Assembly: GCA_016939335.1 (NCBI GenBank)
Contig: JAFGHC010000027.1
Span: 1 to 60,666 of the forward strand
Origin: Candidatus Saganbacteria bacterium
Lineage (GTDB): Bacteria > Margulisbacteria > WOR-1 > O2-12-FULL-45-9 > XYB2-FULL-48-7
Direction: 5' to 3'
Length of the DNA stretch: 60,666 nt
This document shows, one piece after another, positions 8,825 to 43,884 of the stretch. Position 1 is the stretch's first letter, and each line of letters begins with the position of its first letter. The notes below the pieces were generated by a model, which worked only from the letters and a program-made list of their open reading frames with translations, was not told the origin of the DNA and made no database searches. A program made the translations under genes and the position numbers.

Positions 8825-9868
8825 GTGTTAGTGATGGCCATCGAAACCTCCTGCGACGAGACCGCCGCCGCCGTCGTGCGCGACGGGCGGGAAGTTCTGT
8901 CCAGCGTCATCTCTTCGCAGACCGAGTTCCACAAAAAGTACGGCGGGATCGTGCCGGAGGTGGCCGCCCGCAAGCATATCGAGGTCATCTCGCCGGTCAT
9001 CAAGGAAGCGATGGAGACGGCAAAAGCCGGCTTCCGCGAACTTGACGCGGTCGCCGTCACCTGCGGCCCCGGGCTGGTCGGCTCGCTCATCGTCGGGCTC
9101 TCCGCCGCCAAAGCGATCGCCTGGTCGATCAACAAGCCCCTCATCGGCGTCAACCATCTTGAGGGACATATCTATGCGAACTTTTTAAATCCCAACCTCA
9201 AACTTCAAACATCCAAACAAAAGGCAAAGGACAATCATCAAAAACCAAATTTCCCTTTTGTTTGCTTGCTGGTTTCCGGCGGTCACACAATGATTATCAA
9301 AGTTAACGGGCACGGAGTCTACCAGACCCTCGGCCGCACGCGCGACGACGCAGCGGGGGAAGCGTTCGACAAAGTGGCGCGGTTCCTCGGTCTCGGCTAC
9401 CCGGGCGGGCCGGTCATCGACCGGCTGGCCAAAGAAGGCAACCCAAAGGCCGTGAAGTTCACCCGCCCCCTCCCCGACGGCTACGACTTCAGCTTCAGCG
9501 GGATCAAGACGGGTGTTGTCAACGTCAAGAGCCGTGACCCGGGACTCACGACCCGGGACATTGTTGCTTCCTTCCAGCAAGCCGTCGTCGATGTCCTGGT
9601 CGATAAAGCTGTCCGCGCCGCGCTGGACCACGGCTGTCAAACAATGACGCTCGCCGGCGGCGTTTCGGCAAATTCATTATTGAGAAGCCAGCTTGAAGCG
9701 CGCGGAGAAGACGCAGGCTTAAAGGTTGTCATCCCGCCCTTCGAATACTGCACCGACAACGCCGCCATGATCGCCAGCGCCGGATTTTATAAATACATCA
9801 ATTCGTCATTCGTCATTCGTCATTCGTCATTATCCCTTGAAGCCGTTGCCAGTTTGCGCCTGGAGTAA
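8825..9868 (+). CDS. tsaD: tRNA N6-adenosine threonylcarbamoyltransferase TsaD
   Basis: AIETSCDET, VPEVAARKH, GPGL.GSL, VNHLEGH, LVSGGHT, DDAAGEAFDK, CTDNAAMI. Confidence 0.97.
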   Translation: MLVMAIETSCDETAAAVVRDGREVLSSVISSQTEFHKKYGGIVPEVAARKHIEVISPVIKEAMETAKAGFRELDAVAVTCGPGLVGSLIVGLSAAKAIAWSINKPLIGVNHLEGHIYANFLNPNLKLQTSKQKAKDNHQKPNFPFVCLLVSGGHTMIIKVNGHGVYQTLGRTRDDAAGEAFDKVARFLGLGYPGGPVIDRLAKEGNPKAVKFTRPLPDGYDFSFSGIKTGVVNVKSRDPGLTTRDIVASFQQAVVDVLVDKAVRAALDHGCQTMTLAGGVSANSLLRSQLEARGEDAGLKVVIPPFEYCTDNAAMIASAGFYKYINSSFVIRHSSLSLEAVASLRLE

Positions 9869-9880
9869 TATAGTAATATA

Positions 9881-10696
9881 ATGGCGGTCATGCTTATGCT
9901 ACTAACTGACCCGTCAGCGGCCGCGGCTTTTGGGTTCATCCTGGCGCTCCTCTGCTTGCTGCCGATCGTCATTCTCGCCTGCCGCAAAAAGCCGGGCGTG
10001 ACGGCCAACAGCCATCTCAAGATAGTCGACCAGGTGGCCCACGAGATCAAAAGCCCGCTGGCGGCGATCATCGGCTACACCAGTTTGCTCAACGCCCGCC
10101 AGCTCGGCCCCCTGGGCGAACAGCAGGCCGAGCCGCTCCAGATCATCGACCACCAGTCGCGGCGCATCCTTGAGATCGTCCAGGACTGCCTCGACCTGAC
10201 CCGGCTGGAAGCGCGGCAGTTGAAGTTCGAGACCAAGCCGGGCAGCCTGGCGGCGGCGGCCGCGCGGGCGCTCGACGAAACCGCCGCCCAGCTTAACGCC
10301 AAACGGGTCACCGTCGACCGCGAGTTCGACCCGCGCACGCCAACGGTGGCGATGAACGAAGAAAAGATCGTCCGCGTTTTCGCCAATCTGATCTCCAACG
10401 CGGTCAAATACTCGCGCGAGGGCGGGCGGATCGCGATCACGCTCGCGCCGCACAGGAACGGCGCGCTGGCCGCGGTCAGGGACGAAGGGCTGGGGATCGC
10501 GCCCGCCGACCTGCCGCATGTCTTTGAACCCTTCTTCAACCCCAACAAAGAGTCGGCCGCCCAGCGGGAGACCGGCATGGGGCTGGCGCTCTGCAAACTG
10601 ATCGTGGAAAAAGGGCACGGCGGGCGGCTGTGGGGAACGTCCGAAGGCCCCGGCCGGGGCGCAACTTTTTCTTTTGCCCTCCCCCGGGCGGCTTGA
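9881..10696 (+). CDS. Sensor histidine kinase (TM-HisKA-HATPase), orphan
   Basis: AHEIKSPL H-box, NLISNAVKY, D.G.GI, FEPF, GMGLALCK. Confidence 0.9.
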   Translation: MAVMLMLLTDPSAAAAFGFILALLCLLPIVILACRKKPGVTANSHLKIVDQVAHEIKSPLAAIIGYTSLLNARQLGPLGEQQAEPLQIIDHQSRRILEIVQDCLDLTRLEARQLKFETKPGSLAAAAARALDETAAQLNAKRVTVDREFDPRTPTVAMNEEKIVRVFANLISNAVKYSREGGRIAITLAPHRNGALAAVRDEGLGIAPADLPHVFEPFFNPNKESAAQRETGMGLALCKLIVEKGHGGRLWGTSEGPGRGATFSFALPRAA

Positions 10697-10708
10697 TATA
10701 ATAACGTC

Positions 10709-10987
10709 ATGCAGATCGACGTCGAACACGTGGCGCGGCTCGCCCGCCTCGGCCTTTCCGACGAGGAAAAAAAGCTGTTCGGCGAACAGCTCGCCGCCAT
10801 CCTCACTTACGCCGACAATCTGAAAAAGCTCAACACCGACGGGGTGCCGCCAACCACCCACGCTATCCCGCTGAAGAACGTCTACCGCGCGGACAAGGCC
10901 GCTCCCTCCCCCGACCTGCCCGCGATCATGGCGGGCGCCCCCGACAAGGCGGACCGGATGTTCCGCGTGCCGAGGATCATCGAATGA
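10709..10987 (+). CDS. gatC: Asp/Glu-tRNA amidotransferase subunit C
   Basis: [17 protein letters not shown]; precedes gatA. Confidence 0.95.
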
Positions 10988-12426
10988 CCGCGCATGAGCT
11001 GGCGGCCCGGCTCGCCGGCCGTAAACTTTCTTCAGCCGAACTCACCCGGTCGTTTTTTGAACGGATCAAGAAGCTCGAGGAGCGGGTCAAAGCTTTTGTG
11101 ACACTGGACGAGACCGGGGCGCTGGCGCAGGCGGCCGAGGCCGACCGCCGCTTAAAGAGCAAAGAGCATGTCACCCCCCTGACCGGCATCCCGATCGCTG
11201 TCAAAGACAATATGTGCACGAAGGGGCTGCGCACCACCTGTTCGTCAAAGATACTGACCGATTACCACCCGCCCTACGACGCCACCGTCGTAGCCAGGCT
11301 GAAGGCGGCCGGGGCGGTCATCATCGGCAAGACCAACCTCGACGAGTTCGCCATGGGCTCGTCGACGGAGAACTCGGCCTTCCAGATCACGCACAATCCC
11401 TGGAATCTCGCCGCGGTGCCGGGCGGCTCCTCGGGCGGCTCGGCGGCGGCGGTGGCGGCGGGGGAAGCGGTCATCGCCCTCGGCTCCGACACCGGCGGCT
11501 CGATCCGCCAGCCGGCCGCTTTCTGCGGCGTGGTCGGGCTCAAGCCGACCTACGGGCGGGTCTCGCGCTACGGGCTGGTCGCCTTCGCTTCGTCGCTCGA
11601 CCAGATCGGCCCGATCACCCGGGACGTGACCGACTGCGCGCTGCTGCTGAATCTCTTGGCCGGCCACGACCCGCTCGATACGACATCGGTCGAGGCGCCG
11701 GTCCCCGACTACCGCCGGGTGCTGGCCGGCGGCATCAAAAAGCTGAAGGTCGGGCTGATCAGCGACCTGATGGGCAACGGGATCGACCGCGAGGTCAAGG
11801 CGGCGGTCAAAAAAGCGGCCGACCTGTTCGCCCGGCTCGGGGCAGAAGTCATTGAGGTCTCGCTCCCGACCTTAGAGTACGCCGTGGCGACTTATTATCT
11901 GATCGCTCCGGCCGAGGCAAGCTCCAATTTAGCGCGCTACGACGGCGTCAAGTTCGGCTACCGGAATAAAGAGGCCAAAGACCTGATCTCGATGTATTAC
12001 AGCACCCGGCGCGAAGGCTTCGGCGCCGAGGTCAAGCGCCGGATCATGCTCGGCACTTACGCCCTCTCGGCCGGCTACTACGACGCATATTACCTGAAAG
12101 CGCTCAAGGTCAGAACGCTGATCAAACGCGACTTCGACCGGGCCTTTGACCGCTGCGACGCGCTCCTCTCGCCGGCCGCGCCGACCGTCGCCTTCAAGAC
12201 CGGCGAGAAGACGGACGACCCCCTCTCGATGTACCTCTCCGACATCGCCACCATCCCGGTCAACCTGGCCGGGCTCCCCGCCCTGTCGCTCCCCTGCGGC
12301 TTCAGCCGGGGCCTGCCGATCGGGCTGCAGATCATTGGCCGGGCATTCGACGAGGAGACTATCCTGCGGGCGGCCTTCACTTACGAGCAGAACACCGAAT
12401 GGCACAAAGCCCAAGCGAATGTTTAA
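10984..12426 (+). CDS. gatA: Asp/Glu-tRNA amidotransferase subunit A
   Basis: Amidase signature [30 protein letters not shown]. Confidence 0.97.
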
Positions 12427-13507
12427 ACCGCTTAAATTAATCCCTTCATTATTTTTTATTTTTTATCTTTTATCTTTTATTTGTTTTTGCCGGGCCGAAA
12501 CGCCGCAAAAATTCCCGCCGGTCTCGGGCACGATCTTCGGCCAGGTCTCGCCGGGGGTCCGCTCGGCCACCGTCAACGGCAAGCCGGTCCGGTTCGACGC
12601 CGACCAGAACTTTACCGCCGCCGTCCGGCTGCGGGCCGGCGAGAAATACCTGACGCTGGTCATCAACTACGACAACCTGCGCATCATCAAGAAATACCTG
12701 ATCCTGCGCAAATCGGCGGTCAGCAACTTCAAGGTCTTCGTCCCCAAGGAAAAGATCGAGAAGTCGATCGCCGCGCTCAAGGCGTCGCGCCAGCTCGCCG
12801 CGCAGCAGCAGGCGGCCCGGCGGCGCGCCCGGCTGAAGGAACTGGCGGAAGAGCAGCGGCTGGCCGCGCTGGCCAAAGCCCATCGCCTGAAAGAGCTGGC
12901 CGCGGCGCGGGAAAAGGCGTGGCTCGACCAGACCGCCTCGCCGAAATTCTTCGCCAATGAATTCCGGGCGAGCGGGGAGGTCGGGGCGCTGCTCGACGAG
13001 ATCAGCGCCGCCGGCTACGGCATCCCTTTCAAAACAAGGGAAAAGTCGCTGGCCAAGCTCAATGAACTCCTGGGCCTGCCCAACTTTTATGATCTGGTCA
13101 TGAAAAAGAACAAATTCGTGCCGCTCACCCCGCTGCTCCGCTCGCTGATCGCCGAGACCGAGGCCTACCGCTACCGCCCTTTCACCCAACTGACGCCGTA
13201 CCAGCGCAAGAAGCTGATGCTGCTCAACCGCCTGCTGATCGAGGCGCTCTTCGCCTCCGCGCCGCGACGCAGCACCTGGCTGGCGGCCCCGCCGATCCCC
13301 ACCTTTACCAAGACCAAGCAGTATCTCTTCGTCTGGGAATTCAGCGAAGGGAAGCTCCTGGCCGTCAAACAAAAACAGGGCAGCTATTCCGCCGATATAT
13401 ATATTCCCGTTTCCAAGAATTGGCTAAACCTGAAAGGCTTGTCGGAAAAAGACCTGCAGGAGCTGATCGAGAAGCCGGTCGCATCCTTTAAAGAGAAAAA
13501 GAAGTAG
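12419..13507 (+). CDS. Exported hypothetical protein between gatA and gatB
   Basis: Start reassigned to MFKPLK (overlaps gatA stop); hydrophobic signal, short Ig-like segment, coiled coil. Confidence 0.65.
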
Positions 13508-13513
13508 CTTATA

Positions 13514-15091
13514 ATGGCAAACATGAAACATGAAACGGTGATCGGGCTGGAGGTCCACGCCCAGCTCCTGACCGAGAGCAAAATGTTCTGCTCCTGCCCG
13601 AACAAATTCGGCGCGCCGCCCAACACCAACATCTGCCCGGTCTGCACCGGCCAGCCCGGTTCGCTCCCCGTGACCAACAAAAAAGCGGTCGAGCTGGCGA
13701 TCAAGACGGCGCTCGCGCTCAACTGCCGGATCGAGCCGAGCTCGGTCTTCGCCCGCAAGCATTACTTCTATCCCGACCTCCCCAAAGACTACCAGATCTC
13801 CCAGTACGAACAGCCGCTGGCCACCGGCGGCTGGCTGGAGATCGAGATCGACGGCCAGGTCAAAAAGATCGGCATCACCCGGGTCCATCTCGAGGAAGAC
13901 GCCGGCAAACTGGTCCACGTCGGGGCCGCCCGGATCATGGGAGCGGAGGAATCGCTGGTCGATTTCAACCGGACCGGGACCCCCCTGATGGAGATCGTCT
14001 CGGAACCCGACCTGCGCTCGCCCCGCGAAGCGGCGGCCTACACCGAAACGCTGGCCAACCTGCTCCGCTACCTCGGCGTCTGCGACGCCAAGATGGAGGA
14101 GGGCTCGCTCCGCTGCGACGCCAATCTCTCGCTCCGGCCGGCCGGGGAAACGAAATTCGGCACCAAGACCGAGGTCAAGAACATGAACTCGTTCCGGGCG
14201 ATCGAGAAAGCGCTGGCCGCCGAAGAGAAAAGGCACGCGGAAGTGCTGGCGGAGGGCGGCCAGGTCGTCCAGGAAACGCGCTTTTTTGACGATGTGACCG
14301 AAACGACCAGCGGCATGCGCGGCAAGGAATTCGCCCACGATTACCGCTACTTCCCCGAACCGGACCTGGTGCCGCTCGAACCGCCGGCCAAATGGACCGA
14401 AGAAATAAAGAACGGCATTGGTGAATTGCCCCGCACGGTGATCGCCCGTTATATGAAAGAATATGAGCTCTCGCGGGAGTGGGCCGACTTCCTTGTCTAT
14501 CATGAGCTGACCGGCTGCCTTGAGGGGGCATTGAAAATTTATAAGACCAAACCTTTTAATTATGCCAGGTGGCTGATAGTCGAGCTCCCTTCCTTTATCG
14601 CGGAGCTCAACAAAGAGGCCGCCGAGAAAAGCAATATCAATAAGGCGAAGAGCGAACTCCCCCATCCATGGGTGATCGAGGACGCGGCTGAAAAAGCGGC
14701 TGAAGATAATTATAAAAAAAACATCGAAGTCTCGGGTAAATCCCTGCCTAAATTGAACCTCACCCCGGCAAAACTCGCGGAGATCGAGAAATTGATCGAC
14801 GGCGGGACGCTAAGCTATAAGATCGCCAAAACCGTCCTGTTTGCCGCCATCAAGACAGGAAAAGAGCTCGCCGCGATCATCGCGCAGCAGGGGCTGACCC
14901 AGATCAGCGATGAGGGGGAGCTCCTGAAAGTCGCGCGGGAAGTCGTCAAGAACAATCCCAGGCAGGCCGAGCAGTACAAGGGGGGCAAAGAAGCGGTGAT
15001 GATGTTCTTTGTCGGCCAGATGATGAAGGCGACCAAAGGGCGGGCCAATCCGGAACTGGCCGCCAAAATGCTGAAGCAGGCGCTCAGCTGA
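13514..15091 (+). CDS. gatB: Asp/Glu-tRNA amidotransferase subunit B
   Basis: [52 protein letters not shown]. Confidence 0.97.
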
Positions 15092-15098
15092 CAAACTT

Positions 15099-15722
15099 AT
15101 GAGCGACATCGTTTATCAGGCGGGCAATTCCCTCTACCTCAACATCACCAACCGGTGCACCAACCAGTGCCCGTTCTGCGTCAGGTATAAAAGCCGGAAG
15201 TTCAACCGGAAACACCTTCTCTGGCTGGAAAAAGAGCCGGCGGCGGAAGAGCTGCTGGCCGCCGGCGGCGATATTTCCAAATACAAGCAGATCGTCTTCT
15301 GCGGCTACGGCGAGCCGACAATTCGGCTGGATATCATTAAGGCTGTCGCAGCCGAATTAAAATCAAAAATAAAAAATAAAAAATCAAAGACCATGGTCCG
15401 CCTGGACACCAACGGCCACGGGAACCTGTTCTGGGGGCGCAATATCCTGCCCGAGCTGAAAGGGCTGATCGATTCCGTTTCGGTCAGCCTGAACGCGGCC
15501 GACGCGGCGACGTACGATAAACTCTGCCATTCGGCTTACGGGCCAGCGGCTTACCCGGCGGTGATCGATTTTATCAAGGAAGCGAAAAAACACATCCCCG
15601 AGGTCGAGGCGTCGATTGTTGACCTGCCGGCGGTCGATAAAAAGAAAGCCCGGGCGCTCGCGGCCGGTTTGGGTGTAAAATTCAGGATCAGGCCGTATTA
15701 CGAGGAGAGTTATGTCAGATAA
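15099..15722 (+). CDS. TatD-associated radical SAM protein
   Basis: LYLNITNRCTNQCPFC (CxxxCxxC), VFCGYGEPT, R.DTNG.GNL, SVSLNA. Confidence 0.85.
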   Translation: MSDIVYQAGNSLYLNITNRCTNQCPFCVRYKSRKFNRKHLLWLEKEPAAEELLAAGGDISKYKQIVFCGYGEPTIRLDIIKAVAAELKSKIKNKKSKTMVRLDTNGHGNLFWGRNILPELKGLIDSVSVSLNAADAATYDKLCHSAYGPAAYPAVIDFIKEAKKHIPEVEASIVDLPAVDKKKARALAAGLGVKFRIRPYYEESYVR

Positions 15723-17043
15723 TTACGATCTCGCGGTCCTGGGCGGCGGACCGGCCGGCTACGCGGCGGCGCTCCGGGGGGCTCAGCTCGGCGCCAGGGT
15801 CTGCCTGATCGAGCAAGAGAAAGTGGGCGGCACCTGCCTGAATCAGGGCTGTATCCCGACCAAAGCGCTGATCGCCTGCACCTCGCTCTATGAGAAAATA
15901 CAGAAAGCGGGAAGTTTCGGCATCACCGCCGGCGCGGCCGCCATCGACCTGGCCAAAGTCATCGAGCGAAAAGACGCTATCGTCTCAAAGATCGTCAAAG
16001 GCCTGCAAAAACTGATCGAGCAGAACAGGATCGAGATCATTCAGGGGGAAGGCAAGATCATCGCCCCGGATAGAATTGAAATAATAAAATCCGACGGTTA
16101 TAAGTTATCAGTTATTGGTCATAAGTTAATAATTGCCACCGGCTCCGCCCCCGCCTCCCTCCCCGGCCTGAACTTCGATCACGACCGCTTCCTCTGCAGC
16201 GACGACGCGCTGGCGCTTAAAGAAACGCCGCGCCAGATCACGATCGTCGGCGGCGGGGTGATCGGCATTCACTTTGCCTCGATCTATAGCGCCCTCGGCG
16301 CCGAAGTCACTATCTATGAAGCGCTGCCGGAGATCCTGCCCGGTATCGACGAAGAAGTCGTCGCACTGATTAAAAGGATCTTGAGCCGGAAGAAAGTCAA
16401 GATCCTCACTAACACTCTGTACGATCCGGCTAAAGCTGATTCCAAGGCCCTGATCTGCGTCGGCCGCACGCCGAAGATCATGGGGTTCGAAGCGCTCGGC
16501 CTAAAAATGGACCGGCGGAGTGTTCGGGTCAACGAAAAGATGGAGACGAGCGTCAAAGGCGTCTCTGCCGCCGGCGACGTCTGCAGCAAAGTGATGCTGG
16601 CCCATGTCGCCTACGAGCAGGGCGTGGCCGCCGCGGAAAACGCGCTGGGCGGCAGCCGGACGTTCAGTTATAACTGTGTGCCGCTCGGCATCTATACCAA
16701 CCCGGAGATCGGCGCGGTCGGGCTGACCGAAAAAGCGGCCCGCGAGCAAGGCTTGAACGTCAGCGTCGGCCGGTTCCCCTTCGGCGCGCTGGGGATCGCG
16801 CAGGCGCTGGGCGAGATCGAGGGCTTCATTAAGGTCGTGGCGGACGAGCAGAAGAAAATATTAGGCGTCCATATCATCGGACCGGAAGCGACCTCGCTGA
16901 TCGGGACGGCTTGCCTCGCGCTCAAGAATAATTTATCGGCCGAACAGCTGGCGGAAACTTTCCAGGCCCACCCCTCTTATCCCGAAGGCCTGCAGGAAGC
17001 GGCGCTGAACATCTTCCGCCGCAGTCTGCATATCCCGAACTGA
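15712..17043 (+). CDS. lpdA: Dihydrolipoyl dehydrogenase
   Basis: GGGPAG, GGTCLNQGCIP redox motif, GGGVIG, HPSYPE. Confidence 0.9.
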   Translation: MSDNYDLAVLGGGPAGYAAALRGAQLGARVCLIEQEKVGGTCLNQGCIPTKALIACTSLYEKIQKAGSFGITAGAAAIDLAKVIERKDAIVSKIVKGLQKLIEQNRIEIIQGEGKIIAPDRIEIIKSDGYKLSVIGHKLIIATGSAPASLPGLNFDHDRFLCSDDALALKETPRQITIVGGGVIGIHFASIYSALGAEVTIYEALPEILPGIDEEVVALIKRILSRKKVKILTNTLYDPAKADSKALICVGRTPKIMGFEALGLKMDRRSVRVNEKMETSVKGVSAAGDVCSKVMLAHVAYEQGVAAAENALGGSRTFSYNCVPLGIYTNPEIGAVGLTEKAAREQGLNVSVGRFPFGALGIAQALGEIEGFIKVVADEQKKILGVHIIGPEATSLIGTACLALKNNLSAEQLAETFQAHPSYPEGLQEAALNIFRRSLHIPN

Positions 17044-17050
17044 AGCCAAC

Positions 17051-18723: not shown

Positions 18724-18772
18724 ATCCCCACACTGAAGTGTGGGGAATTATACCCCGGACTTTAGTCTGGGG
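18724..18772. repeat. Pair of REP-like palindromes
   Basis: ccccacac-tgaa-gtgtgggg and ccccggac-ttta-gtctgggg. Confidence 0.75.
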
Positions 18773-19678: not shown

Positions 19679-20214
19679 CAACACGTCCGCTAGAAACCTT
19701 TAAGTGACCGGCGGACTACGACACGGTCCGACTGCGCCGGACCTACAACTAACAACTTCCGGAGGCGTTAGCGTGTCCTTCAGATTCCTAGATTTCCCGG
19801 TCTACAAAGAAATCAAAAAATACATTGGAGATGTTTACTCGCTCTCCTCAAATTTCCCCAAAGACGAACAATTTGGCTTAACCAATCAATTGCGCCGGGC
19901 CGCGACCTCGATCGCCCTGAATTTGGCCGAAGGATCGGACCGGGGTTCGGACCAAGACTTTAAACGCTTCATCCAAATGGCCATTGGGTCGGTGAACGAA
20001 ACGGTCGCAGTTTTAGATATTGCTCTTGAAATGGGCTTCATTAGCCAAGAAAATTACGCTATAATAATAAAGAAAGCTGAAAGCATTGTTAAGCAATTAT
20101 CCGGTTTTCGGCAATCTTTAAAAGGCCGTTAGTTGTTAGTTGTAGCGAGGCCGCCGCAGGCGGACGAGCGTGTCGTAAGTTGTCAGTCGTAGTTCGCCGC
20201 AGGCGAACGTGTTG
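19679..20214. mobile_element. IVS-like element: nested inverted repeats enclosing a four-helix-bundle gene
   Basis: Pairs 19743-57/20131-45 (15 bp perfect), 19717-25/20169-77, 19679-86/20207-14, with side hairpins. Confidence 0.7.
19773..20132 (+). CDS. Four helix bundle protein (23S rRNA IVS / TIGR02436-like)
   Basis: F.DFPVY, FPKDEQFGLTNQLRRAATSIALNLAEG, F.RFI.MAIGS..E; GGAGG RBS with GTG start. Confidence 0.92.
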   Translation: MSFRFLDFPVYKEIKKYIGDVYSLSSNFPKDEQFGLTNQLRRAATSIALNLAEGSDRGSDQDFKRFIQMAIGSVNETVAVLDIALEMGFISQENYAIIIKKAESIVKQLSGFRQSLKGR

Positions 20215-20218
20215 ATAC

Positions 20219-20291
20219 GCGGGAGTAGCTCAGTTGGTAGAGCATCACCTTGCCAAGGTGAGGGTCGCCGGTTCGAGCCCGGTCTCCCGCT
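20219..20291 (+). tRNA. tRNA-Gly (GCC), CCA not encoded
   Basis: GCGGGAG acceptor stem, D-arm AGCTCAGTTGGTAGAGC, anticodon loop TTGCCAA, GGTTCGAGCCC T-arm. Confidence 0.97.
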
Positions 20292-20357
20292 TTTAACTTG
20301 TAACTTACGAACTTATAACCAATAACTGAAAGAATAACTGAAAGGGGAAATTTTATT

Positions 20358-24327: not shown

Positions 24328-25123
24328 GGTTAATTATCCTCAAGGCGTCGAGCAGCTTGCGCGTATAGGAAGATTGCGGGCGGGAAAGGACCGCGGCCAC
24401 CGGGCCGGTCTCGACGACAGAGCCTTTGTTAATGACCAGAACGTCCCTGCAGAACGCCTTCACGATGCCGAAATTATGGGTGATAAAAATGACGGACAGG
24501 TTAAACTCCGCCTGCACCTCTTTTAACAGCTGGATGATCTCCAGCTGGATCGTGGTGTCGAGCGCGGTCGTCGGCTCGTCGGCGATCAGGAGCTGCGGCC
24601 GGCAGGCGAGCGCCATGGCGATCATCACCCGCTGGCGCATCCCGCCGGAAAACTGGTGCGGATAGTCATGGGCCCGCCGCTCCGCTTCCTTGATGTGGAC
24701 CGCCTCGAGCCTTTTGACCGCCGCCGCCCAGGCCGCCGCGCGCCCCAGCCCCTGATGCAACCTGACCGCTTCGGCGATCTGCTCGCCGACCGTAAAAACC
24801 GGGTTGAGCGAAGTGAACGGGTCCTGGAAGATCATCGAGATCTTGGCGCCGCGGACGCGGACCATTTCAGCGTCTGATAATTTAAGCAGGTTTTTGCCGT
24901 CAAAAATTATTTCGCCGGACGTGATCCTCCCGGGCGGCGCGATCAATTTCATGAGCGCCAGGGCGATCGTCGATTTGCCGGAGCCGGACTCGCCCGCGAT
25001 GCCAAGCGTGGCCCCCTTGGCCAGGCTAAAGCTGACGTTAGCGACCGCCTTAACGCCCGGATAAACTACCGATAAATTCCCCACAATTAATTGTGGGGAA
25101 TTTTTTAAATTATTGTCTAACAT
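24320..25123 (-). CDS. oppD: Oligopeptide ABC transporter ATPase (OppD-like)
   Basis: [35 protein letters not shown]; start uncertain. Confidence 0.88.
25074..25103. repeat. Perfect 30-bp palindrome (REP-like family) in the oppD 5' region
   Basis: aaattccccacaattaattgtggggaattt. Confidence 0.8.
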
Positions 25124-31976: not shown

Positions 31977-33473
31977 TTACTTTTGAATTCGGGGGAAAAG
32001 CGGCGCCCCTTTGACGACTTTCTCGCCGCTGAGGTTAATCTGGGCCTTGATTTTTTCCGCGGTTTCGGGCATGAATGGAGCGATCAGCGCCGTGACCAGC
32101 GTGAGAACCTCGACCAGGTTAACCAGCACCAGCGCCAACCGCTCTTTCTCTCCGTTCTTGGCCAGCGTCCAGGGCGCCTGTTTTTCAATGTAAACGTTGG
32201 CCCGGGAGATCAGCGTCCAGATCGCCGTCAGGGCGTCCGAAAACGCCAACTCATCCATATATTTATCGACCAGCCCAGGGGTCTCTTTGATCAGGCCGAT
32301 CAATTCCCGGCTCAAATCGTCCATGACCGCGGATTTCGGACTTGGAACTTGTGACTCGCAGTATTTCTCCACCATCGTCAGCGTCCGGCTCAAGAGGTTC
32401 CCCAGATCATTGGCCAGATCAGCATTATACCGGTTGATGAAAGAATTCATGGAAAAGTCGCCGTCAACGCCGAACGGCACTTCGCGCAGGATGAAATAGC
32501 GGACGGCGTCGACCCCGTACTCCGCGCTCAAGGCGAGCGGATCGACCACGTTGCCGCGGCTCTTGCTCATTTTTGCCCCTTCGACCGTCCACCAGCCGTG
32601 CCCGAAAATTTTTTTCGGCAAAGGCAGCCCCAGCGCCAGCAGCAGGCAAGGCCAGGTCACGGCGTGGAAACGGACGATCTCCTTCCCCATCAGATGGACG
32701 TCGGCCGGCCAGAACTTGCGGAAGAGGCCGTCATCGGCGCTCAAATAACCGAGGGCGGAAACGTAGTTGATCAGCGCGTCGAACCAGACGTAGACGACAT
32801 GGCGCGGGTCCTCGGGCACGACGATCCCCCAGGGAAAAGCGGTGCGCGTGACCGAAAGGTCTTTCAGCCCCTGTTTGACGAACTGAACAATCTCGTTGCG
32901 GCGCGGCTCGGGCCGGATAAAATCTGGGTTGGCCTCGATGTGCCGCAGCAGCGGTTCCTGGTATTTGGAAAGCCGGAAGTAGTAGGTCTCTTCGCGCAGC
33001 CGGTCGGCCGGCCGGCCGCAGTCGGGGCAGAGCCGGCGCTCCTCCATGTCCTCGGCCAGGTCGGACTCGTTCCAATAAGTTTCGCAGGGGACGCAGTACC
33101 ACCCCTCGTATTCGCCCTTGTAGATATCGCCCTGTCTGAGCAGCCGGCCGAAGATCTTCTGGACGGCCGTTTCGTGCTTCCGGTCGGTGGTGCGGATGAA
33201 GTCGTCATAGCTGATGCCCAGTTTGTCCCAGGCGTCCCGGAAGCGGACGACTATCTTATCGACATATTCCTGAGGCGACAGGTTGTTTTGTTCGGCCGCT
33301 TTCCAGACCTTCTGGCCGTGCTCGTCAGTGCCGGTGAGAAAATGGACGTCGCAGCCCGCCGCCCGCTTGTGGCGCGCCAGCACGTCGGCGGCGATCGTCG
33401 TGTAGGCGTGGCCGAGATGCGGCACGTCGTTGACGTAATAAAGGGGGGTCGTCAGGTAAAACTTTTCCTTCAT
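31977..33473 (-). CDS. metG: Methionine--tRNA ligase (short form, no C-terminal dimerisation domain)
   Basis: YYVN..PHLGH, GTDEHG, YVWFDAL, KMSKS, LFPRI. Confidence 0.97.
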   Translation of the reverse strand: MKEKFYLTTPLYYVNDVPHLGHAYTTIAADVLARHKRAAGCDVHFLTGTDEHGQKVWKAAEQNNLSPQEYVDKIVVRFRDAWDKLGISYDDFIRTTDRKHETAVQKIFGRLLRQGDIYKGEYEGWYCVPCETYWNESDLAEDMEERRLCPDCGRPADRLREETYYFRLSKYQEPLLRHIEANPDFIRPEPRRNEIVQFVKQGLKDLSVTRTAFPWGIVVPEDPRHVVYVWFDALINYVSALGYLSADDGLFRKFWPADVHLMGKEIVRFHAVTWPCLLLALGLPLPKKIFGHGWWTVEGAKMSKSRGNVVDPLALSAEYGVDAVRYFILREVPFGVDGDFSMNSFINRYNADLANDLGNLLSRTLTMVEKYCESQVPSPKSAVMDDLSRELIGLIKETPGLVDKYMDELAFSDALTAIWTLISRANVYIEKQAPWTLAKNGEKERLALVLVNLVEVLTLVTALIAPFMPETAEKIKAQINLSGEKVVKGAPLFPRIQK

Positions 33474-34331: not shown

Positions 34332-36527
34332 ATGACCTTGGCAATTTCCGATACTACCAGCGCCCTGTTGCTGGCTTATCATTTAGAAAAAAAAGATAGT
34401 TCGTCGGCTTCTTCTCCCCCCGGTGAAGAAGGGGCGCATCTGGTCAGAAAAGCTTCCCCCTCTGCCCCGGCGGAAGGGACGCACCTTGTTAGGAAAACCG
34501 CCTCCTCTGCCCCGTCGGACGTCGACATTCTGGTCAATCAGGCCTTTTATCTCCCCGGCTACTCCAAGGTCGCGCTGGTCCGCGCCAATAGCGAAATCGC
34601 GGCCGGCAAATTCAAACTTACCGAAACCAGCAGCAATAAAACCGTTCACGAAGGCGCGCTAAAAAGATATGGAACATATGCCCGCTGGGGCAATGAGTTT
34701 TATTACTTCGCTGATTTTTCTTCACTCAACAAAGAAGGAACGTATAAATTAACGGCCGAATGGCCGGGGCATCAGGCCTCCGCTGCTGTTGTCATCAAAA
34801 AATCGGAATTGAGCCGCGCGACAGGCAATGCGGCCGGGTTTTTTTATTTTCAGCGCTGCGGCGCGGCGATTCCCGGCTGGCACGGGCCCTGCCATACCAA
34901 TGATCCAGAGGGGACGGCCGGCGGCTGGCACGACGCGGGAGATTATAATAAATACATTTACACCCAGTGGCAGCCGGCTTGGGCGCTTCTCGATCTTTAC
35001 CAGAAAACAAAGGACCGGAAATATCTGGCCGAAGCTAAATGGGGAGAGGATTTTTTGGCCAAAATGGTCAGGCCCGACGGGAGCATGTGGAGCGCCGTCT
35101 TCGGCGGCTGGGACTGGACCAGGCCGGAACAGGGCAATACCAGGGAGCTGACGTCAGCTCAATGGGGCGACCCGACCTGGGCAGTAGCGGCCAACAGCGC
35201 GACTTTCGCTAAGATGGCCGCTTATACTTCCGGCACGGAGCACGAGAAGTTCCTCCGCCTGGCCAAACAGACCAACCAGTATTTCCGTCAGCATTTCCGG
35301 TTCGGGCACATCCCGCGCGGCGAAGACCTTCAGGGGCTCGGCGGAATCGTCCTCAGCGACCTTTTGCTCCACGAACAGACAGGCGACGGCTCATATTTGG
35401 CCGACGCCGAAAAGAACGTCCGCCTGATCCTGGCGCACCAGGACCGGCGCGGCTTCTTCTTTACCGACAGCAACAGGCAAGAACCTTTCTGGGACGACTA
35501 CATGACCTATTTCTTTGTCGAGGCGCTCGGCGATTACGCCCGCCGTTTCCCGCGCCGCGAGCTGACCGGCCAGATCAAGGCCGCCCTGCGCAACCTGGCC
35601 GATAACCAGTTGAAATTCCTCTCCTCCCGCACTCCTTTCCGCCAGATGCAAATGCTCGACCCTCTCGACCAGCACCCGCCGAACGGCGAGGTTTTTGAGA
35701 ACTTTTTCGACAAGAAGATCGAAGGCTGGATCCGCGGGGCCAATAGCTACTACCTGTCGTCGGCCAACGCGGCGATGATCGCCTATTCCCTGCTCGGCAA
35801 GCCGGAGTACAAGGAGATCGCCATTAACCAGCTGAACTGGGTGCTCGGGGTCAATCCTTATGGCATTTCTTTCATGGAGGGGAGCTGCGTCAGGTGCACT
35901 AAGAACGGTCATCACCGTTATGACACTTTACCCGGGCACGCCAATGGGATTGTGCCGGGCGGGATCACCAACGGTCTGGCCAGCAACAACGGAGAAGATT
36001 ATTTTTACGACGCTCTGGGCAAGACCTGGGCGAGCAATGAGACCTGGCTGCCGCATAACGCCTGGTTCATCATGCTCGGCTTAAAACTTTCCGCTTATCT
36101 TGATGAGGCGGCCGCCGCTTCCAGCCTGACCGTCAACAGTGATAGCGCCAACGCTGAAAAAAAACCGCCGGCCGCCCCGGAACCGGTCGTGATCAGCGCT
36201 TCCGGCCTTCTCCCCAACATCACTTTCCAGTCGGTAGTCAGGAATGGAACGCTCAAAGAGAACGGCGATTCGATCGGCGTTGATATCAGGTTCCGGTTCA
36301 CCAACATTCCTCCGGCGGTCGTTTCTCTCAAGGGAAATATATATACCAGCGGCATCTGGCCGCAGGGAGAAGTTAAGGTCGAACGGGGGAAAAGCGACTA
36401 TATTTTCAAGGCCTTCCTGTACAAATTGAACCGTTTCAGCGGTTTTTTTATCCAGGGTTTCGACCGGACAGGAAAAAGAATCTTTCAAAGCGATTCATTC
36501 CCGATCGAACTACCTCCCAAGAAATAA
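34332..36527 (+). CDS. Glycoside hydrolase family 9 with N-terminal Ig-like (CelD_N-type) domain
   Basis: VNQ.FY.P..SKVA, FFYFQRCG, GGWHDAGDYNKY, LNWVLG.NP, HHR, NE..L..NA; catalytic D/D/E present. Confidence 0.88.
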   Translation: MTLAISDTTSALLLAYHLEKKDSSSASSPPGEEGAHLVRKASPSAPAEGTHLVRKTASSAPSDVDILVNQAFYLPGYSKVALVRANSEIAAGKFKLTETSSNKTVHEGALKRYGTYARWGNEFYYFADFSSLNKEGTYKLTAEWPGHQASAAVVIKKSELSRATGNAAGFFYFQRCGAAIPGWHGPCHTNDPEGTAGGWHDAGDYNKYIYTQWQPAWALLDLYQKTKDRKYLAEAKWGEDFLAKMVRPDGSMWSAVFGGWDWTRPEQGNTRELTSAQWGDPTWAVAANSATFAKMAAYTSGTEHEKFLRLAKQTNQYFRQHFRFGHIPRGEDLQGLGGIVLSDLLLHEQTGDGSYLADAEKNVRLILAHQDRRGFFFTDSNRQEPFWDDYMTYFFVEALGDYARRFPRRELTGQIKAALRNLADNQLKFLSSRTPFRQMQMLDPLDQHPPNGEVFENFFDKKIEGWIRGANSYYLSSANAAMIAYSLLGKPEYKEIAINQLNWVLGVNPYGISFMEGSCVRCTKNGHHRYDTLPGHANGIVPGGITNGLASNNGEDYFYDALGKTWASNETWLPHNAWFIMLGLKLSAYLDEAAAASSLTVNSDSANAEKKPPAAPEPVVISASGLLPNITFQSVVRNGTLKENGDSIGVDIRFRFTNIPPAVVSLKGNIYTSGIWPQGEVKVERGKSDYIFKAFLYKLNRFSGFFIQGFDRTGKRIFQSDSFPIELPPKK

Positions 36528-36661: not shown

Positions 36662-36684
36662 ATATACGTGGAGATCATTATCAA

Positions 36685-38811: not shown

Positions 38812-38846
38812 ATAATCAGCCTGCGTCAAGTTGAAAGGAGCAGCTC

Positions 38847-39224: not shown

Positions 39225-39238
39225 CCCGGCTCGCCAAG

Positions 39239-40396
39239 CTACGGGTTAACCGGAAACAGGATCCTGATCTCCGCCACGTTGGAGAGCGCGTTATTCAGCT
39301 TCTCCGGGACCCCGCCGGTCAAATAATAGTCGGGAAATTCGCAAACCGGCAGCGGCCGCCACCGGCCGGACGGATCGTCCTTCAGCTTGACGTCCACCAG
39401 GAAACGGTCGAGCAAACGCGCCTCCCAATCGTCCTTAAAGAGATCGGCCGCCAGGTAATCGGGTTTGATGAACGCGCGGAAGAGCGGCGCCCGCCCCTCG
39501 AGCGACGGTTCGCCGTCGAGCGGGGCGACGACCAGCCACTGCGGCGCACCGTAAGCGTATTTAAGGGCGGCCGCGTGACCGGCGGGGATGATCTGGAAGC
39601 CGCCCAGGCTGCCGAGCGGCGAAGTGGAAACGTCGAGCACCCCCGCGTGATTGGCCCTGACCCGGCCGGCCGAAGCGTATTTGCTCCCCTCGAACCGCCC
39701 GATCCCCCGCGCGGGAAAAACGACGCTGCCGACCTCCCTGGTCTCGCCGTTGAAATATGCGACGACGACCCGGCCGCCGGCCCGGTTCTCGATCTCGATC
39801 TCTCTGGGATAATCGACCGGGACCTCAACGATGAGGTAGATCCTGTCCTCGGGCCAGGGGACGTAACCGGGCGGGACCGGCTGATAAACGTAACCGGCGC
39901 GGTGGACCATTACCCGGTTGCCGACCAGCGGCGCGTACTCGCCGCCGAAGATCCCCGTGCCGGCCGGAATATCGGTGTAGATCGAAGCGTCGGCGCTGAA
40001 ATATGACCGGTAATCACGGGGCGGGCTGTAAAACTCCTTCGGCAGCAGGCTGAAAATGACCGCGCGCCCGTCGGCCTCGGTCGAGGTCTTCAGGTGGATG
40101 GCGTTGACCGCCGTGGCGGCCACCTGGCCGTCGGGCACCCAGCGGGCCGCGGCGTAGCCGTGCGGATTGGTCTGGACCGTCGGAGCGACGACCTTGCCCA
40201 ACCGCTGCCAATTCTTGCCGCGGTCGGCGCTGACCTCGACCGTTCCGCCGGCCTGGTTCCAGACCTTGATCCGGTAGATCTCCTTGAGCTTGAGAACGGG
40301 CGCAGCTTCCGGACTGGCAGCTTCGGGTGTAACTTGAGCCAAACAGACAGCCGAAAGCAGACAGCCGAAAGCAGACAGCAGGAGAAGTCGCCGCAT
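39239..40396 (-). CDS. Exported hypothetical protein with an internal N/C duplication
   Basis: Signal peptide; repeated I...N.AGG.V.V ... G.V..P units; GRVRANH.GV.DVSTSP.G..GGFQIIP. Confidence 0.75.
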   Translation of the reverse strand: MRRLLLLSAFGCLLSAVCLAQVTPEAASPEAAPVLKLKEIYRIKVWNQAGGTVEVSADRGKNWQRLGKVVAPTVQTNPHGYAAARWVPDGQVAATAVNAIHLKTSTEADGRAVIFSLLPKEFYSPPRDYRSYFSADASIYTDIPAGTGIFGGEYAPLVGNRVMVHRAGYVYQPVPPGYVPWPEDRIYLIVEVPVDYPREIEIENRAGGRVVVAYFNGETREVGSVVFPARGIGRFEGSKYASAGRVRANHAGVLDVSTSPLGSLGGFQIIPAGHAAALKYAYGAPQWLVVAPLDGEPSLEGRAPLFRAFIKPDYLAADLFKDDWEARLLDRFLVDVKLKDDPSGRWRPLPVCEFPDYYLTGGVPEKLNNALSNVAEIRILFPVNP

Positions 40397-42438: not shown

Positions 42439-42454
42439 AGAAAACCCTCCTTTT

Positions 42455-42568
42455 AATGACGAATTACGAATGTCGAATTACGAATTATTGTGTCCGCCTC
42501 TGGCGGACTTTAATTAATGTGCCGAAGGCACACCTTCATTCGTCATTCGTAATTAGTAATTCGTAATT
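42455..42568. repeat. Inverted tandem 7-mer element (AATKACG / CGTMATT) with internal hairpins, ORF-less
   Basis: Arms aatgacgaattacgaatgtcgaattacgaatt and cattcgtcattcgtaattagtaattcgtaatt; loop contains gtccgcc-tct-ggcggac and tgtgcc-gaa-ggcaca. Confidence 0.85.
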
Positions 42569-43432
42569 CTACCAGGACCTCCCCGCTCCCCCGCCCCCGC
42601 TGCTGCCGCCGCCAAAGCCGCCGAAGCCGCCTCCGCCGCCGCCAAAACCTCCGCCGCTGAACGACCCGCCGATCCAACCGCCCCAGCCGCCGCGAAAAAA
42701 TCGTAAATATGATACCATAAATCCGAGCACCGCTCCAAGCGCGGCGCCGCCCGGCCCGCCGAGAAAGAACCCGAAGAGCGCGCCGATGAGCGCGCCGGCT
42801 ATGCCGGCCAGCAGACCGTGCAAGAAGATCGTGAAGACCGCAATGATCAGCACCGCGGCCGAGATGACCGCGTCATTTGACCCCCAGTCATCCCGGCTTG
42901 TTTTTCGGGCCGGCCGGTACTGCTCGCCCATTTCCTGCTTGGCGCCGGCCGCGATCTGTTCGCTCAAAGCGGCCGCCACATTATAAAGCCCTTCGCCGAA
43001 TTGCCCCGCCTTGAAATAAGGAATGCCGAATTTGTCGAGGATCGCGCCGGCTTTGGCGTCGTTGATCACCCCTTCGAGCCCGTAGCCGACCTCGATCTCG
43101 ATCCGCCGCTCGTCTTTGGCCAGCAGGATGAGCAGGCCGTTGTCTTTCCCTTTCTGGCCGGGGCGCCACTGCTCGAACAGTCTGACCGCGTAGGTCTTGG
43201 GATCAAGCGGCTCAACCGACTTGACGATCGCCACCGCCAGCTGCGCCGAAGTCTTCTCCGCCAGTTCGCGGCAGAGCCCTTCGAGTTTGGCTTCGGCCTG
43301 GGCGTCAAGCAGGCCGGCGTAATCGTTGACAAAGCCGGTGGGACGGGGAAAAACTGGTTCAGCCGCCGGCACCGCGGCAACCAGCAAAAAAGCGGCCGAT
43401 AAAGCGGTAACTAGTCTCAATAATGGCTTCAT
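42569..43432 (-). CDS. TPM domain (YgcG-like) membrane protein
   Basis: VNDYAGLL, GKDNGLL, IEVGYGLEG, Gly-rich C-tail GGGGAGRSW. Confidence 0.9.
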   Translation of the reverse strand: MKPLLRLVTALSAAFLLVAAVPAAEPVFPRPTGFVNDYAGLLDAQAEAKLEGLCRELAEKTSAQLAVAIVKSVEPLDPKTYAVRLFEQWRPGQKGKDNGLLILLAKDERRIEIEVGYGLEGVINDAKAGAILDKFGIPYFKAGQFGEGLYNVAAALSEQIAAGAKQEMGEQYRPARKTSRDDWGSNDAVISAAVLIIAVFTIFLHGLLAGIAGALIGALFGFFLGGPGGAALGAVLGFMVSYLRFFRGGWGGWIGGSFSGGGFGGGGGGFGGFGGGSSGGGGAGRSW

Positions 43433-43461
43433 CTTGTTTTTTACTTCTAACTTATTACTTT

Positions 43462-43884
43462 TTACTTAAAAAAGATCGCCAGTTCGCGGTCAGCCGCCTC
43501 GGGCGAGTCGGAGCCGTGGACCAGGTTCTTGATGATCCCGTCCTCGTTGATGACCGCCGCTTCCTTGAGGTCGCCGCGGACGGTGCCGCGCTCGGCCGCC
43601 AGCGGGTCGGTGTCGCCCATCAGCCGGCGCAGGGCGGCGATCGCCCCCTCGCCGCTGACCAGGCAGGCGACCACCGGGCCGGAGGTGATGAACTTGATGA
43701 GGCCGGGGTAGAATTTCTTGCCGAGATGGGGCCGGTAGAGCTCGGCCGCCTGGGCGGGGGTCAGGACCAGCTGTTTTTTCTCTGCGACCGCCAGGCCGGC
43801 GCCGCTCACTCTCTTTAAGATCGTTTCCGCCAAGCCGCGGGCCACCCCGTCAGGCTTTATCATGAAGAAGGTTTTTTCTCGCAC
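43462..43884 (-). CDS. ndk: Nucleoside diphosphate kinase
   Basis: MIKPDGV, SGPVVA, GTVRGD, NLVHGSDS. Confidence 0.95.
   Translation of the reverse strand: MREKTFFMIKPDGVARGLAETILKRVSGAGLAVAEKKQLVLTPAQAAELYRPHLGKKFYPGLIKFITSGPVVACLVSGEGAIAALRRLMGDTDPLAAERGTVRGDLKEAAVINEDGIIKNLVHGSDSPEAADRELAIFFK

Follow-up and report, generated by a model that had tools for sequence, protein, structure and literature searches.

The 60,666-nucleotide stretch analysed here, referred to below as the window, is contig JAFGHC010000027.1 of a Candidatus Saganbacteria bacterium (assembly GCA_016939335.1), in which an initial annotation had named ten stretches of seven-nucleotide periodicity, most of them inside housekeeping genes. 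We found that these tracts are members of a population of about 300 in the same genome, and that the population falls within the known class of heptameric simple-sequence repeats (SSRs). It is that class in a new form, heavily embedded in coding sequence: despite a bias to non-coding DNA, about half of the copies lie inside open reading frames (ORFs). Judging from alignments with relatives and solved structures, the commonest outcome at coding sites was apparently the replacement of some ten residues with little or no net change of length, full insertions being a minority. The sites persist over order-level divergence, with units that are specific to each genome and recur within it.

Excess of period-7 tracts in the genome

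The genome (G000; 1.53 Mb, 42 contigs, 58% G+C) has the window as its contig 1. All ten named stretches proved heptamer-periodic, their self-identity over lags of 3 to 15 peaking at lag 7 or 14 in every case; three were weak by lag-7 identity, i.e., 9187..9250 (0.58), 9524..9558 (0.61) and 20295..20343 (0.50). A detector that counts matches at lag p in 21 comparisons, used with thresholds of at least 15, 16 or 18 of 21, passed seven of the ten at the lowest setting and failed the two weak tsaD tracts and 20295..20343. Pfam matches bore out the proposed gene identities as TsaD, radical SAM, a pyridine-nucleotide (flavoprotein) disulphide oxidoreductase (lpdA-like) and methionyl-tRNA synthetase (MetRS).

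Over the whole genome, Tandem Repeats Finder (TRF) returned 430 arrays of period 7, compared with 80, 112 and 99 of periods 6, 8 and 14, and with 53-72 period-7 arrays in five fifth-order Markov simulations. With at least 18 of 21 matches, the detector found 160 tracts of period 7, 77 of period 14 and 0-9 at each other period from 4 to 15; with at least 16 of 21 it found 309 period-7 tracts, as against 9, 26, 24, 2 and 5 at periods 5, 8, 10, 11 and 13, respectively. The initial annotation had proposed a comparison of the period-7 signal in coding sequences (CDSs) with shuffled controls. Within the interiors of 850 codon-usage-supported CDSs of at least 200 codons, trimmed by 30 and 15 codons and amounting to 1.0 Mb, 119 period-7 tracts were detected, compared with 0-2 in 10 whole-gene codon-order shuffles and 0-4 in 10 local shuffles (15-codon windows). 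The frame-compatible periods 6, 9 and 12 gave 40, 47 and 47. These data confirm that the period-7 population is real and far wider than the ten named stretches.

Spurious tracts could arise by chance, from biased composition or through misassembly of a metagenome-assembled genome (MAG), and the three weakest named stretches do fail on their own statistics. For the population as a whole, however, such an artefact is already refuted, and we give it practically no weight. The tracts outnumber those of shuffles and of control periods by a factor of 10 to 100, they occupy the same sites, always in frame, in independently assembled genomes of at least 20 genera, and 98% of the sampled words of window positions 8800 to 17100 recur in an independent contig set (which may be that of the source sample).

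Anatomy and placement of the tracts

The population has 127 canonical units, most commonly AATGACG, AAAAGTC, AAATTCG and ACCCGCG, and the mean G+C of the units is about 0.37-0.42, below the 58% of the genome. The median copy number is 4.4 units per tract. Refined tract length has its mode at 31 nt; 183 of the 309 measure 30-34 nt and only 29 exceed 34 nt, the lower side of the distribution being truncated by the detector. Seven and three being coprime, translation of a tract passes through each of the three reading frames and yields a peptide of 10-11 residues with a period of seven amino acids, such as LFFIFYL in signal peptides.

By our own crude gene calls, 121 tracts were CDS-internal, 36 lay within 30 codons of the longest-ORF start, 4 were near a stop, 69 straddled an ORF end and 79 were intergenic. 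On these calls, density was about five-fold higher in non-coding DNA (0.588 tracts/kb) than in CDSs (0.115/kb), and spacers between convergent, co-directional and divergent genes carried 1.77, 1.25 and 0.27 tracts/kb, respectively. No strong translatability bias was seen among the 79 intergenic units, 42, 26 and 11 of which were translatable on one, both or neither strand (random expectation, 0.44, 0.35 and 0.21). Units with stops on both strands made up 11 of the 79 intergenic tracts, as against 1 of the 121 CDS-internal ones. The initial annotation had described the tracts as repeat arms. This term does not fit the coding copies, which are solitary direct-repeat blocks without inverted repeats; inverted same-unit neighbours formed only 24 pairs (48 of the 309 tracts), mostly intergenic and mostly with gaps of 28-83 nt.

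Tracts lying 250-1000 nt apart shared a unit in 13 of 62 pairs (21%), and those 1-3 kb apart in 20 of 124 (16%), against a background of 0.105. The AATGACG family shows the dispersal of defined copies: 20 of its 29 members start in one phase and consist of four units plus AAT, with a non-periodic right flank AAT(G/T)AAGG that is also present in CDS copies, including those in TruB and an IspE-like kinase. The corresponding peptide, NSSFVIRHSS, recurs in at least eight proteins.

Coding tracts in conserved proteins

Of the 98 ORFs that contain internal tracts, alternate ones were searched against Pfam (49 ORFs, 65 tracts), and domains were found in 45 of the 49. Going by best-stretch coordinates of the matches instead of residue alignments, 44 of the 65 tracts fell within one Pfam match by a margin of 5 residues or more, while 14 lay between domains or at a domain edge and 3 peripherally, with the remaining 4 in ORFs without a match. 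The host proteins include aminoacyl-tRNA synthetases (ArgRS, ValRS, LeuRS, ProRS, CysRS and IleRS, the last with six tracts), enzymes acting on nucleic acids (DnaE, MutL, PriA, TruA, TruB, TGT) and metabolic enzymes (ornithine carbamoyltransferase, chorismate synthase, HisF, homoserine dehydrogenase, ArgJ, ProC, NadC, PurD), as well as Mur ligases, an aconitase-family protein, a MetH-like protein, Lnt, ETF, IspD and an IspE-like protein. The tracts appear to be translated in frame, as had been proposed. Peptides of seven-residue period recur from protein to protein (KSKVKSQ, NSSFVIRHSS, SRVAGRG, FEIRNSK, MTNDECR, ATRDSRP, LSVISYK). The coding tracts have units in common with intergenic ones and supply lineage-specific peptide sequence, both of which the initial annotation had anticipated.

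Its placing of the tracts in variable loops, tails and signal-peptide cores was likewise upheld by a model of TsaD and by both signal-peptide cases. AlphaFold2 modelling of TsaD from a 31-sequence alignment (mean predicted local distance difference test score, pLDDT, of 89.5) placed the first of three tracts in a coil of pLDDT below 50 (residues 125-138), the second at a helix-loop-helix junction, where helix 225-237 closes and helix 243 begins (pLDDT above 90), and the third in the C-terminal coil (pLDDT 66-78). As for the signal peptides, a (TTATTTT)x4.9 tract at 12446..12484 on the plus strand (TRF and translation; identity 0.84) encodes the hydrophobic core in the ORF starting at 12419. 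This protein was found conserved in 30 of the 31 genomes that were searched, and its orthologues have ordinary non-periodic signal peptides except in G005 and G011, where there is an ATTTGTC tract. The second case is a 14-nt (2x7) repeat on the minus strand at 40343..40380 (TRF period 14, 100% matches; lag-7 and lag-14 identity 0.71 and 0.92), which encodes the core LLLSAFGCLLSAVCL of ORF 39239-40396. This protein is conserved in 29 of 31 genomes, with similar periodic cores in G009 and G005 and non-periodic ones in the other orthologues. All orthologues examined of the two proteins have N-terminal signal peptides, mostly with non-periodic cores of similar length; here, the tract is the hydrophobic core.

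Arbitrary, frame-scrambled segments of 10-11 residues are thus tolerated at defined places in many enzymes, and the encoded peptides are most likely tolerated passengers instead of adaptations. A change of one unit in a mid-enzyme tract would be lethal.

Length change at coding sites

The three tsaD tracts of the window lie on the plus strand. Tract 1 (9187..9250; NPNLKLQTSKQKAKDNHQKPN), probably two decayed tracts, is a 14+2-residue insertion relative to T. maritima TsaD (6nak), and the length of the site varies in 19 relatives, many of which have heptamer units of their own. Tract 2 (9524..9558; SRDPGLTTRD; lag-14 identity 0.62) aligns ungapped with QREKGYKVED of 6nak. Tract 3 (9801..9831), (ATTCGTC)x4.4 encoding NSSFVIRHSS, is perfect (TRF 100% matches, score 62; lag-7 identity 1.00) and four residues longer than the Paenibacillus and Gloeobacterales outgroups. 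The lpdA-like tract (16096..16127, plus strand; GYKLSVIGHKL; unit GTTATMA, a relative of reversed TAACTGA; lag-7 and lag-14 identity 0.68 and 0.72) shows no length difference from dihydrolipoyl dehydrogenase 6uzi and aligns ungapped with 10 of 15 relatives, the remaining five being 5 aa shorter. The metG tract (32331..32356, minus strand; ESQVPSPKS; lag-7 identity 0.74) is one residue longer than DGELPAYQG of S. aureus MetRS (7wpi), and relatives have other peptides of seven-residue period at the site (SQIPNPKSQ, GQAPRVKGQ, SQHPTSNIQ).

With TruB and HisF added, the net length against outgroup structures is thus 0 for tsaD site 2, lpdA and TruB site 2 (1k8w), +1 aa for metG and TruB site 1 (1k8w), +7 aa, i.e., three units, for HisF (4evz) and +16 aa for tsaD site 1. 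The initial annotation had named ungapped alignment to conserved orthologous sequence as a refutation of its reading, and this is what metG, lpdA and tsaD site 2 gave, with 0 or +1 residue; by that standard, its reading fails for these three.

Samples of 400 kb from three genomes of the same family yielded 72 tract-by-orthologue comparisons for tracts of at least 8 residues, five shorter ones having been left aside. Net length was identical in 29 of them and within ±2 aa in 42, while the difference was +3 to +6 in 15, +7 or more in 7 and -3 or less in 8. Where the orthologous segment was non-periodic (34 comparisons), it was 0 in 11 and at least +7 aa in 6. Insertion in the manner of Rickettsia palindromic elements (RPEs), as first proposed, is accordingly not supported as a general description, although true insertions do occur, as in tsaD tract 1 and HisF. 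The loop IGDKRKDM of IleRS illustrates replacement: this ancestral loop is kept in 11 of 17 relatives, in both families, with SRVTGHESRV (+2 aa) in its place here and other tracts in near relatives.

Sites and units among relatives

In alignments with 15-19 relatives per gene, tracts occupied the same loops across the order. At tsaD site 2, the relatives carry GGTACCA, GCGACCC and CTCACAC (each four times), CATCGTC, CGATTCA, ATACCCC and AGGACTC. IleRS site 750 has a tract of about four units in 13 of 18 genomes, with nearly all units different. At IleRS site 279, in turn, 14 of 17 relatives retain an AAATYCG tract (KFEIRNPKSEINSK). The ATTCGTC unit family of tsaD site 3 is also found in loci L002, L007, L018 and L025, from two families of the order, with CGACCCG in L003; the tract is thus common to two families, yet 100% perfect in this genome.

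Units recur across sites within single genomes. In G002, CAGGTAC recurs at three sites in two genes, namely site 2 of tsaD and sites 103 and 750 of IleRS. G012 has CGTCCYT at all three tsaD sites, although that unit accounts for only 3 of the 41 tracts in a 400-kb sample, and G006 has GCGACCC, its commonest unit, at two tsaD sites. Unit spectra of four genomes overlapped by 0-0.22. Tract nucleotide identity in ungapped alignments was 0.67 where the orthologue was periodic too (flanks 0.69; n=22), and 0.39, near random, where it was non-periodic (flanks 0.68; n=14).

Tract loads in four genomes of one family were 20.2 (here), 10.2, 4.0 and 1.2 (G004) per 100 kb, a 17-fold range. A density of 21 per 100 kb, calculated from the relatives' tsaD, lpdA and metG loci, was rejected as biased by hot-spot genes, the 400-kb samples having given the three lower values above. 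G004 is a complete genome of 1.67 Mb, and its first 400 kb held 5 tracts, compared with 7 at the control period 8, which amounts to background. Its tsaD site 3 nevertheless retains a 1.5-unit remnant (ATTAATTCGTCATTC), which suggests loss or decay of tracts in that lineage.

Outside the phylum, the tsaD genes of Sediminibacterium/Chitinophagaceae (Bacteroidota) have an in-frame tract of CCAAACT type (PQLQTPNPKLQTPNSKLQT; L056:1689-1773, L052:1691-1719, L071:532-573) in a different loop from the Saganbacteria sites, and many Bacteroidota loci have tracts just after the tsaD stop.

Relation to known repeat systems

The class includes the short tandemly repeated repetitive (STRR) sequences of cyanobacteria, reportedly described by Mazel and co-workers in 1990. 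Like heptameric SSRs and STRRs, the tracts have tandem 7-nt units in excess over other periods, about four units in length, with inverted pairs, enrichment in non-coding DNA, a preference for convergent and aligned spacers and depletion from divergent ones. Heptameric repeats are over-represented in bacteria (Mrazek, 2007, as summarised in PMC4679880), and tandem heptamers are described in a SPADE survey as the most abundant intergenic periodic repeat in prokaryotes, with no clue to function or origin (Mori et al., 2018; PMC6344855). The GGGNATC repeats of Xanthomonas and Nostoc show a four-unit preference ascribed to G-quadruplexes, together with inverted pairs, a non-coding bias and the same spacer preference as here (Rehm et al., 2015; PMC4692102). 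In the present genome, the preference for four units extends to AT-rich and non-G-rich units, so that G-quadruplex formation cannot be its cause, and there are more than 100 units instead of one. In those earlier papers, coding copies are under-represented and set aside, whereas about half of the copies here are inside ORFs of conserved enzymes.

The TAACTGA direct repeats of Beggiatoaceae, Cyanobacteria and Bacteroidetes are heptamer repeats of 2-6 units (MacGregor, 2015; PMC4679880). Of their two strands, one contains stops in every frame and the other can be translated as LSVISYQ, and a few copies are in ORFs; in BOGUAY, "reverse" repeats occur in 11 ORFs, chiefly within hypothetical proteins or at the ends of proteins, and most repeats lie just upstream of start codons. 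TAACTGA-type units occur here at lpdA (KLSVIGH), at 20321-20344 and in G000:C29 (VISYKLSVISY). In contrast to BOGUAY, 44 of the 65 sampled tracts here are inside domain matches of housekeeping enzymes, and 3' spacers are favoured. The TAACTGA family is a small minority, with the canonical unit AACTGAT in 4 of the 309 tracts.

RPEs were reportedly described by Ogata and co-workers in 2000. The tracts resemble them as small repeats in frame in unrelated housekeeping genes that are compatible with the fold and contribute lineage-specific peptide. RPEs are palindromic insertions of about 150 bp that add length, 30-50 residues (PMC10969869), whereas the tracts are direct repeats of about 31 nt without palindromy that mostly take the place of existing sequence and alter net length little or not at all. 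[quoted passage not shown] The initial interpretation therefore stands for in-frame location, loops, common units and new peptide sequence, and is not supported as stated for arms and RPE-like invasion.

Repetitive extragenic palindromes and REPINs with their RAYT transposases (Bertels and Rainey, 2011; PMC3116915) have a counterpart in this genome, which has two Y1 genes and a 54-copy hairpin family flanking one of them; that system is, however, separate from the heptamer tracts, which do not flank a RAYT gene. Phase-variable heptanucleotide repeats such as that of neuO in E. coli K1 (PMC13001214) also place 7-nt units in an ORF where only some copy numbers keep the frame. Contingency repeats of this kind vary in copy number near the 5' end of dispensable, surface-related genes, whereas the present tracts sit in the middle of essential enzymes at a fixed number of about 4.4 units. 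Our literature search returned no report of such tracts as a regular component of housekeeping-enzyme interiors, of predominantly length-neutral replacement or of order-wide sites with genome-specific units; MacGregor (2015) came closest.

Candidate mechanisms

The best explanation, to which we give about an even chance, combines membership of the heptameric class with a copy-over or conversion process, concerted evolution and a selection filter. A copy or conversion process would write a 7-periodic patch of about 31 nt over pre-existing sequence, usually with a net length change of zero or a few codons and only sometimes as a full insertion. Concerted evolution would then keep the patches homogeneous, both within a tract and between the tracts of one genome; under such maintenance, a site would be retained throughout the order even as its unit changed from genome to genome. 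Purifying selection would remove stop-containing orientations, frame-breaking copies and structurally non-permissive copies, so that the surviving ones would look as if frame had been "preserved". More tentatively, and with more doubt than belief, this may be an undescribed copy-over process of this lineage and perhaps of other heptamer-rich bacteria, in which length-neutral patches with genome-specific units spread by replacement at recurrent sites. On that reading, essential proteins would have their surface loops and signal-peptide cores rewritten continually.

Several points weigh against this explanation. The closest relative has about 77% protein identity and no event was caught, so that donors, polarity and mechanism are inferred. 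Conversion between tracts of unrelated units has no obvious homology to act on, and we know of no bacterial enzymology for a length-neutral ectopic patch. Length equality with tract-poor G004 could reflect decay of a tract by substitution there, an objection that only the comparisons with outgroup structures (five near-neutral sites) escape. The relatives are kin, and comparisons with them lack independence; three, of the same family, were sampled at 400 kb per genome. Genes were called by us, crudely, from ORFs and codon usage (1387 ORFs; coverage 91%), and judging by the control periods, which gave 2-26 tracts, some of the 309 detector tracts, about 10-25, may be chance matches.

A mobile element of the RPE or MITE kind, inserting into genes so that in-frame, stop-free copies in loops survive and later loop deletions trim the length, would account well for unit families with fixed phase, fixed copy number and conserved flank, for the 16 residues gained at tsaD site 1 and the 11 to 16 gained by ValRS and an aminotransferase relative to relatives, and for composite inverted-arm elements with hairpin cores; small palindromes are also in frame in relatives (CCTGCCTGCCGGCAGGCAGG in an IleRS tract; CGCGACGTTTAGTCGCAG-type in IleRS and signal peptides). 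We nevertheless consider it rather unlikely. The 11 length-neutral comparisons among the 34 with non-periodic orthologues, and the five of seven outgroup structures at 0 or +1, count against it, and units switch at zero net length, as in ProRS (MSRVAGRGPLVE vs APGTRGQVPGTQ). CDS tracts lack inverted repeats, and 31 nt is far below the RPE size of about 150 bp (PMC10969869). In alignments of four families, no repeated flank marked a target-site duplication, although duplications of 2-3 nt could hide in periodic sequence. The Y1 transposases, moreover, are flanked by another repeat family. Purely local origin, in which mismatch correction after a transient 7-nt misalignment in replication or repair copies a heptamer onto adjacent sequence (slipped-strand conversion) without dispersal between loci, would turn any tolerant stretch 7-periodic at constant length. 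It would suit the ancestral residues that some length-neutral tracts keep (VP in metG; PEIRNSEFGIRF vs KEIEGSEFAVPF; LKSRVAGRGSRVK vs LKERAKASGAKVV), the 127 canonical units and the units that differ between genomes at one site, many by one substitution, and a polymerase-footprint slippage of heptanucleotides was proposed by Mrazek et al. (2007), as summarised in PMC4679880. It is harder to reconcile with the same units at 18-29 loci in the same phase with a common non-periodic flank, with genome-specific repertoires reused in different genes and with a sharp 31-nt mode instead of the decaying tail expected from slippage alone. The 0.39 nucleotide identity to non-periodic orthologues leans the same way, and we judge local origin a little less likely than the mobile element.

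Less probable again is a selected function, in which the heptamers would be sites for a heptamer-reading protein or for pairing with antisense RNAs from intergenic copies, and coding copies would be kept, within a post-transcriptional network, for the regulation of their mRNAs. The constant length of about 4.5 units (31.5 bp, by arithmetic some three helical turns), the conservation of periodicity at orthologous sites across the order and the bias to transcribed 3' spacers would agree with it, and regulatory roles have been proposed for TAACTGA repeats (PMC4679880) and Nostoc heptamers (bioRxiv 10.1101/2022.06.06.494920). More than 100 different units, however, speak against one sequence-specific reader, the load varies 17-fold within one family, of which G004 does without tracts, and Rfam had no match at the intergenic elements.

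Copy-over with concerted evolution and selection shares with any other mechanism three constraints set by the data: a four-unit length that is independent of G-quadruplex potential, many replacements of zero net length, and old sites with genome-specific units. More than 100 copies are pinned in alignable essential proteins, so that orthologues and solved structures give a reference for their gain and loss, their changes of length and the turnover of their units, and the genome thereby offers a natural experiment for heptamer repeats. The tracts also inflate apparent loop divergence in tsaD, ileS, valS and metG, genes that serve as markers for phylogeny and for MAG quality checks.

Further tracts of the window

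The radical SAM tract (15356..15389, plus strand; KSKIKNKKSK; unit AAAATMA; lag-7 identity 0.78) lies inside the Pfam Radical_SAM match at 14-180. The G006 orthologue has a different tract at the site (ATRDPRP; lag-7 identity 0.85) and is 4 aa shorter. A tract that had escaped the initial annotation, (AGCCGAA)-type x4 at 46686..46731 on the minus strand (TRF at 46692-46720, and the detector), encodes MGQEAESRKRKAEFR in an ornithine/aspartate carbamoyltransferase; it corresponds to residues 239-250, inside the OTCace match at 157-310 of the ornithine carbamoyltransferase ORF 46464-47441.

An intergenic inverted pair at 42455..42572 (TRF; gap 43 nt), between two co-directional minus-strand genes, consists of an AATGACG-type arm, the GC hairpins GTCCGCC-TCT-GGCGGAC and GTGCC-GAAG-GCAC, and a CGTCATT-type arm. 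The unit of tsaD tract 3 had been equated with that of this element, and correctly so, as ATTCGTC is the reverse complement of its AATGACG-type unit. Next to it, the 3' end of a TPM-domain gene (42569-43432, minus strand) has a CCG-rich run with a period of 3/9, at 42578-42643, that encodes a Gly-rich C-terminal tail.

The tRNA-Gly gene at 20219-20291 was the only Rfam match at the gathering threshold in the window. The tract behind it (20295..20343) is a composite of a period-7 half, AACTTRT x3, and a period-12 half, (AATAACTGAAAG)x2, which contains TAACTGA (TRF period 12 at 20321-20344). The lpdA tract had been taken for nearly its reverse complement: the two do belong to the same unit family, but they share two 11-mers in reverse complement and in permuted order, and are not straight reverse complements. 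Upstream of the tRNA, at 20128..20215, GTTAGTT x2.3 is followed by two GC hairpins (TRF; hairpin GGCCGCCGCAGGCGGAC at 20149-20165). The intergenic tract TTACTTM x4 at 43438..43467 (TRF; lag-7 and lag-14 identity 0.78 and 0.81) is flanked by co-directional minus-strand genes. A second intergenic inverted pair occupies 55308..55451, with an AAATCCG-type tract at 55308-55340 and a TTCGAAT-type tract at 55414-55451 (TRF; detector at no fewer than 15 of 21). A further pair, at 822..922 (TRF), has AAATCCG x4.3 at 822-851 and ATTTCGA x4.6 at 891-922; the minus-strand ORF that covers it (719-1102) has no Pfam match, so the region is probably non-coding.

Elsewhere in the window, a 45-nt tandem repeat (34428-34519; two copies, 78% matches) lies within a 731-aa ORF (34332-36527). 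At 3580-8229, an 1181-aa ORF (4145-7690, minus strand) and its neighbours fell below the codon-usage threshold and were added in a length-based second pass; their composition may thus be atypical.

Hairpins, transposases and other repeats

The genome has two Y1 transposase genes (PF01797) and one reverse-transcriptase gene (PF00078, RVT_1; G000:C41:11341-11922, a 281-aa ORF). The invasion proposed in the initial annotation found no support here: no heptamer tract lies within 1.5 kb of any of the three genes, and the Y1 genes are flanked by a different hairpin family. A transposase or reverse-transcriptase link was rejected on these grounds, the REP-like hairpins being unrelated to the tracts. 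Of the 54 genomic copies of the hairpin CCCCACA-N6-TGTGGGG, 42 are intergenic (copies in the window, 18726-18745 and 25079-25098), and none of the 54 comes within 60 nt of a heptamer tract. The Y1 (RAYT/IS200-like) gene at G000:C41:26277-26624 has this hairpin on either side (region 26190-26700), and the other Y1 gene is flanked by hairpins similar to CGCGACGTTTAGTCGCAG and CGCGAAGTTCATTCGCAG (G000:C11:34350-34480 and 34833-34930). A loose CTGCGA...TCGCAG hairpin pattern was dropped, since its 43 matches were mostly chance, with 34 in CDSs of unrelated sequence.

The palindrome CCTGCCTGCCGGCAGGCAGG is in frame within the conserved AAATYCG tract of IleRS in G008 (L257) and G024 (L255), which belong to different families. 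Its site is homologous to residues 279-289 of the G000 IleRS, the peptides are ETCLPAGRS and PACRSGRS, and 18 near-copies occur in G000, nine of them in ORFs. Hairpins of CGCGACGTTTAGTCGCAG and CGCGAAGTTCATTCGCAG type are in frame in relatives at IleRS site 750 (L253, L256), and also in the signal peptide of orthologues of the 12419 ORF (L264, L265, L269).

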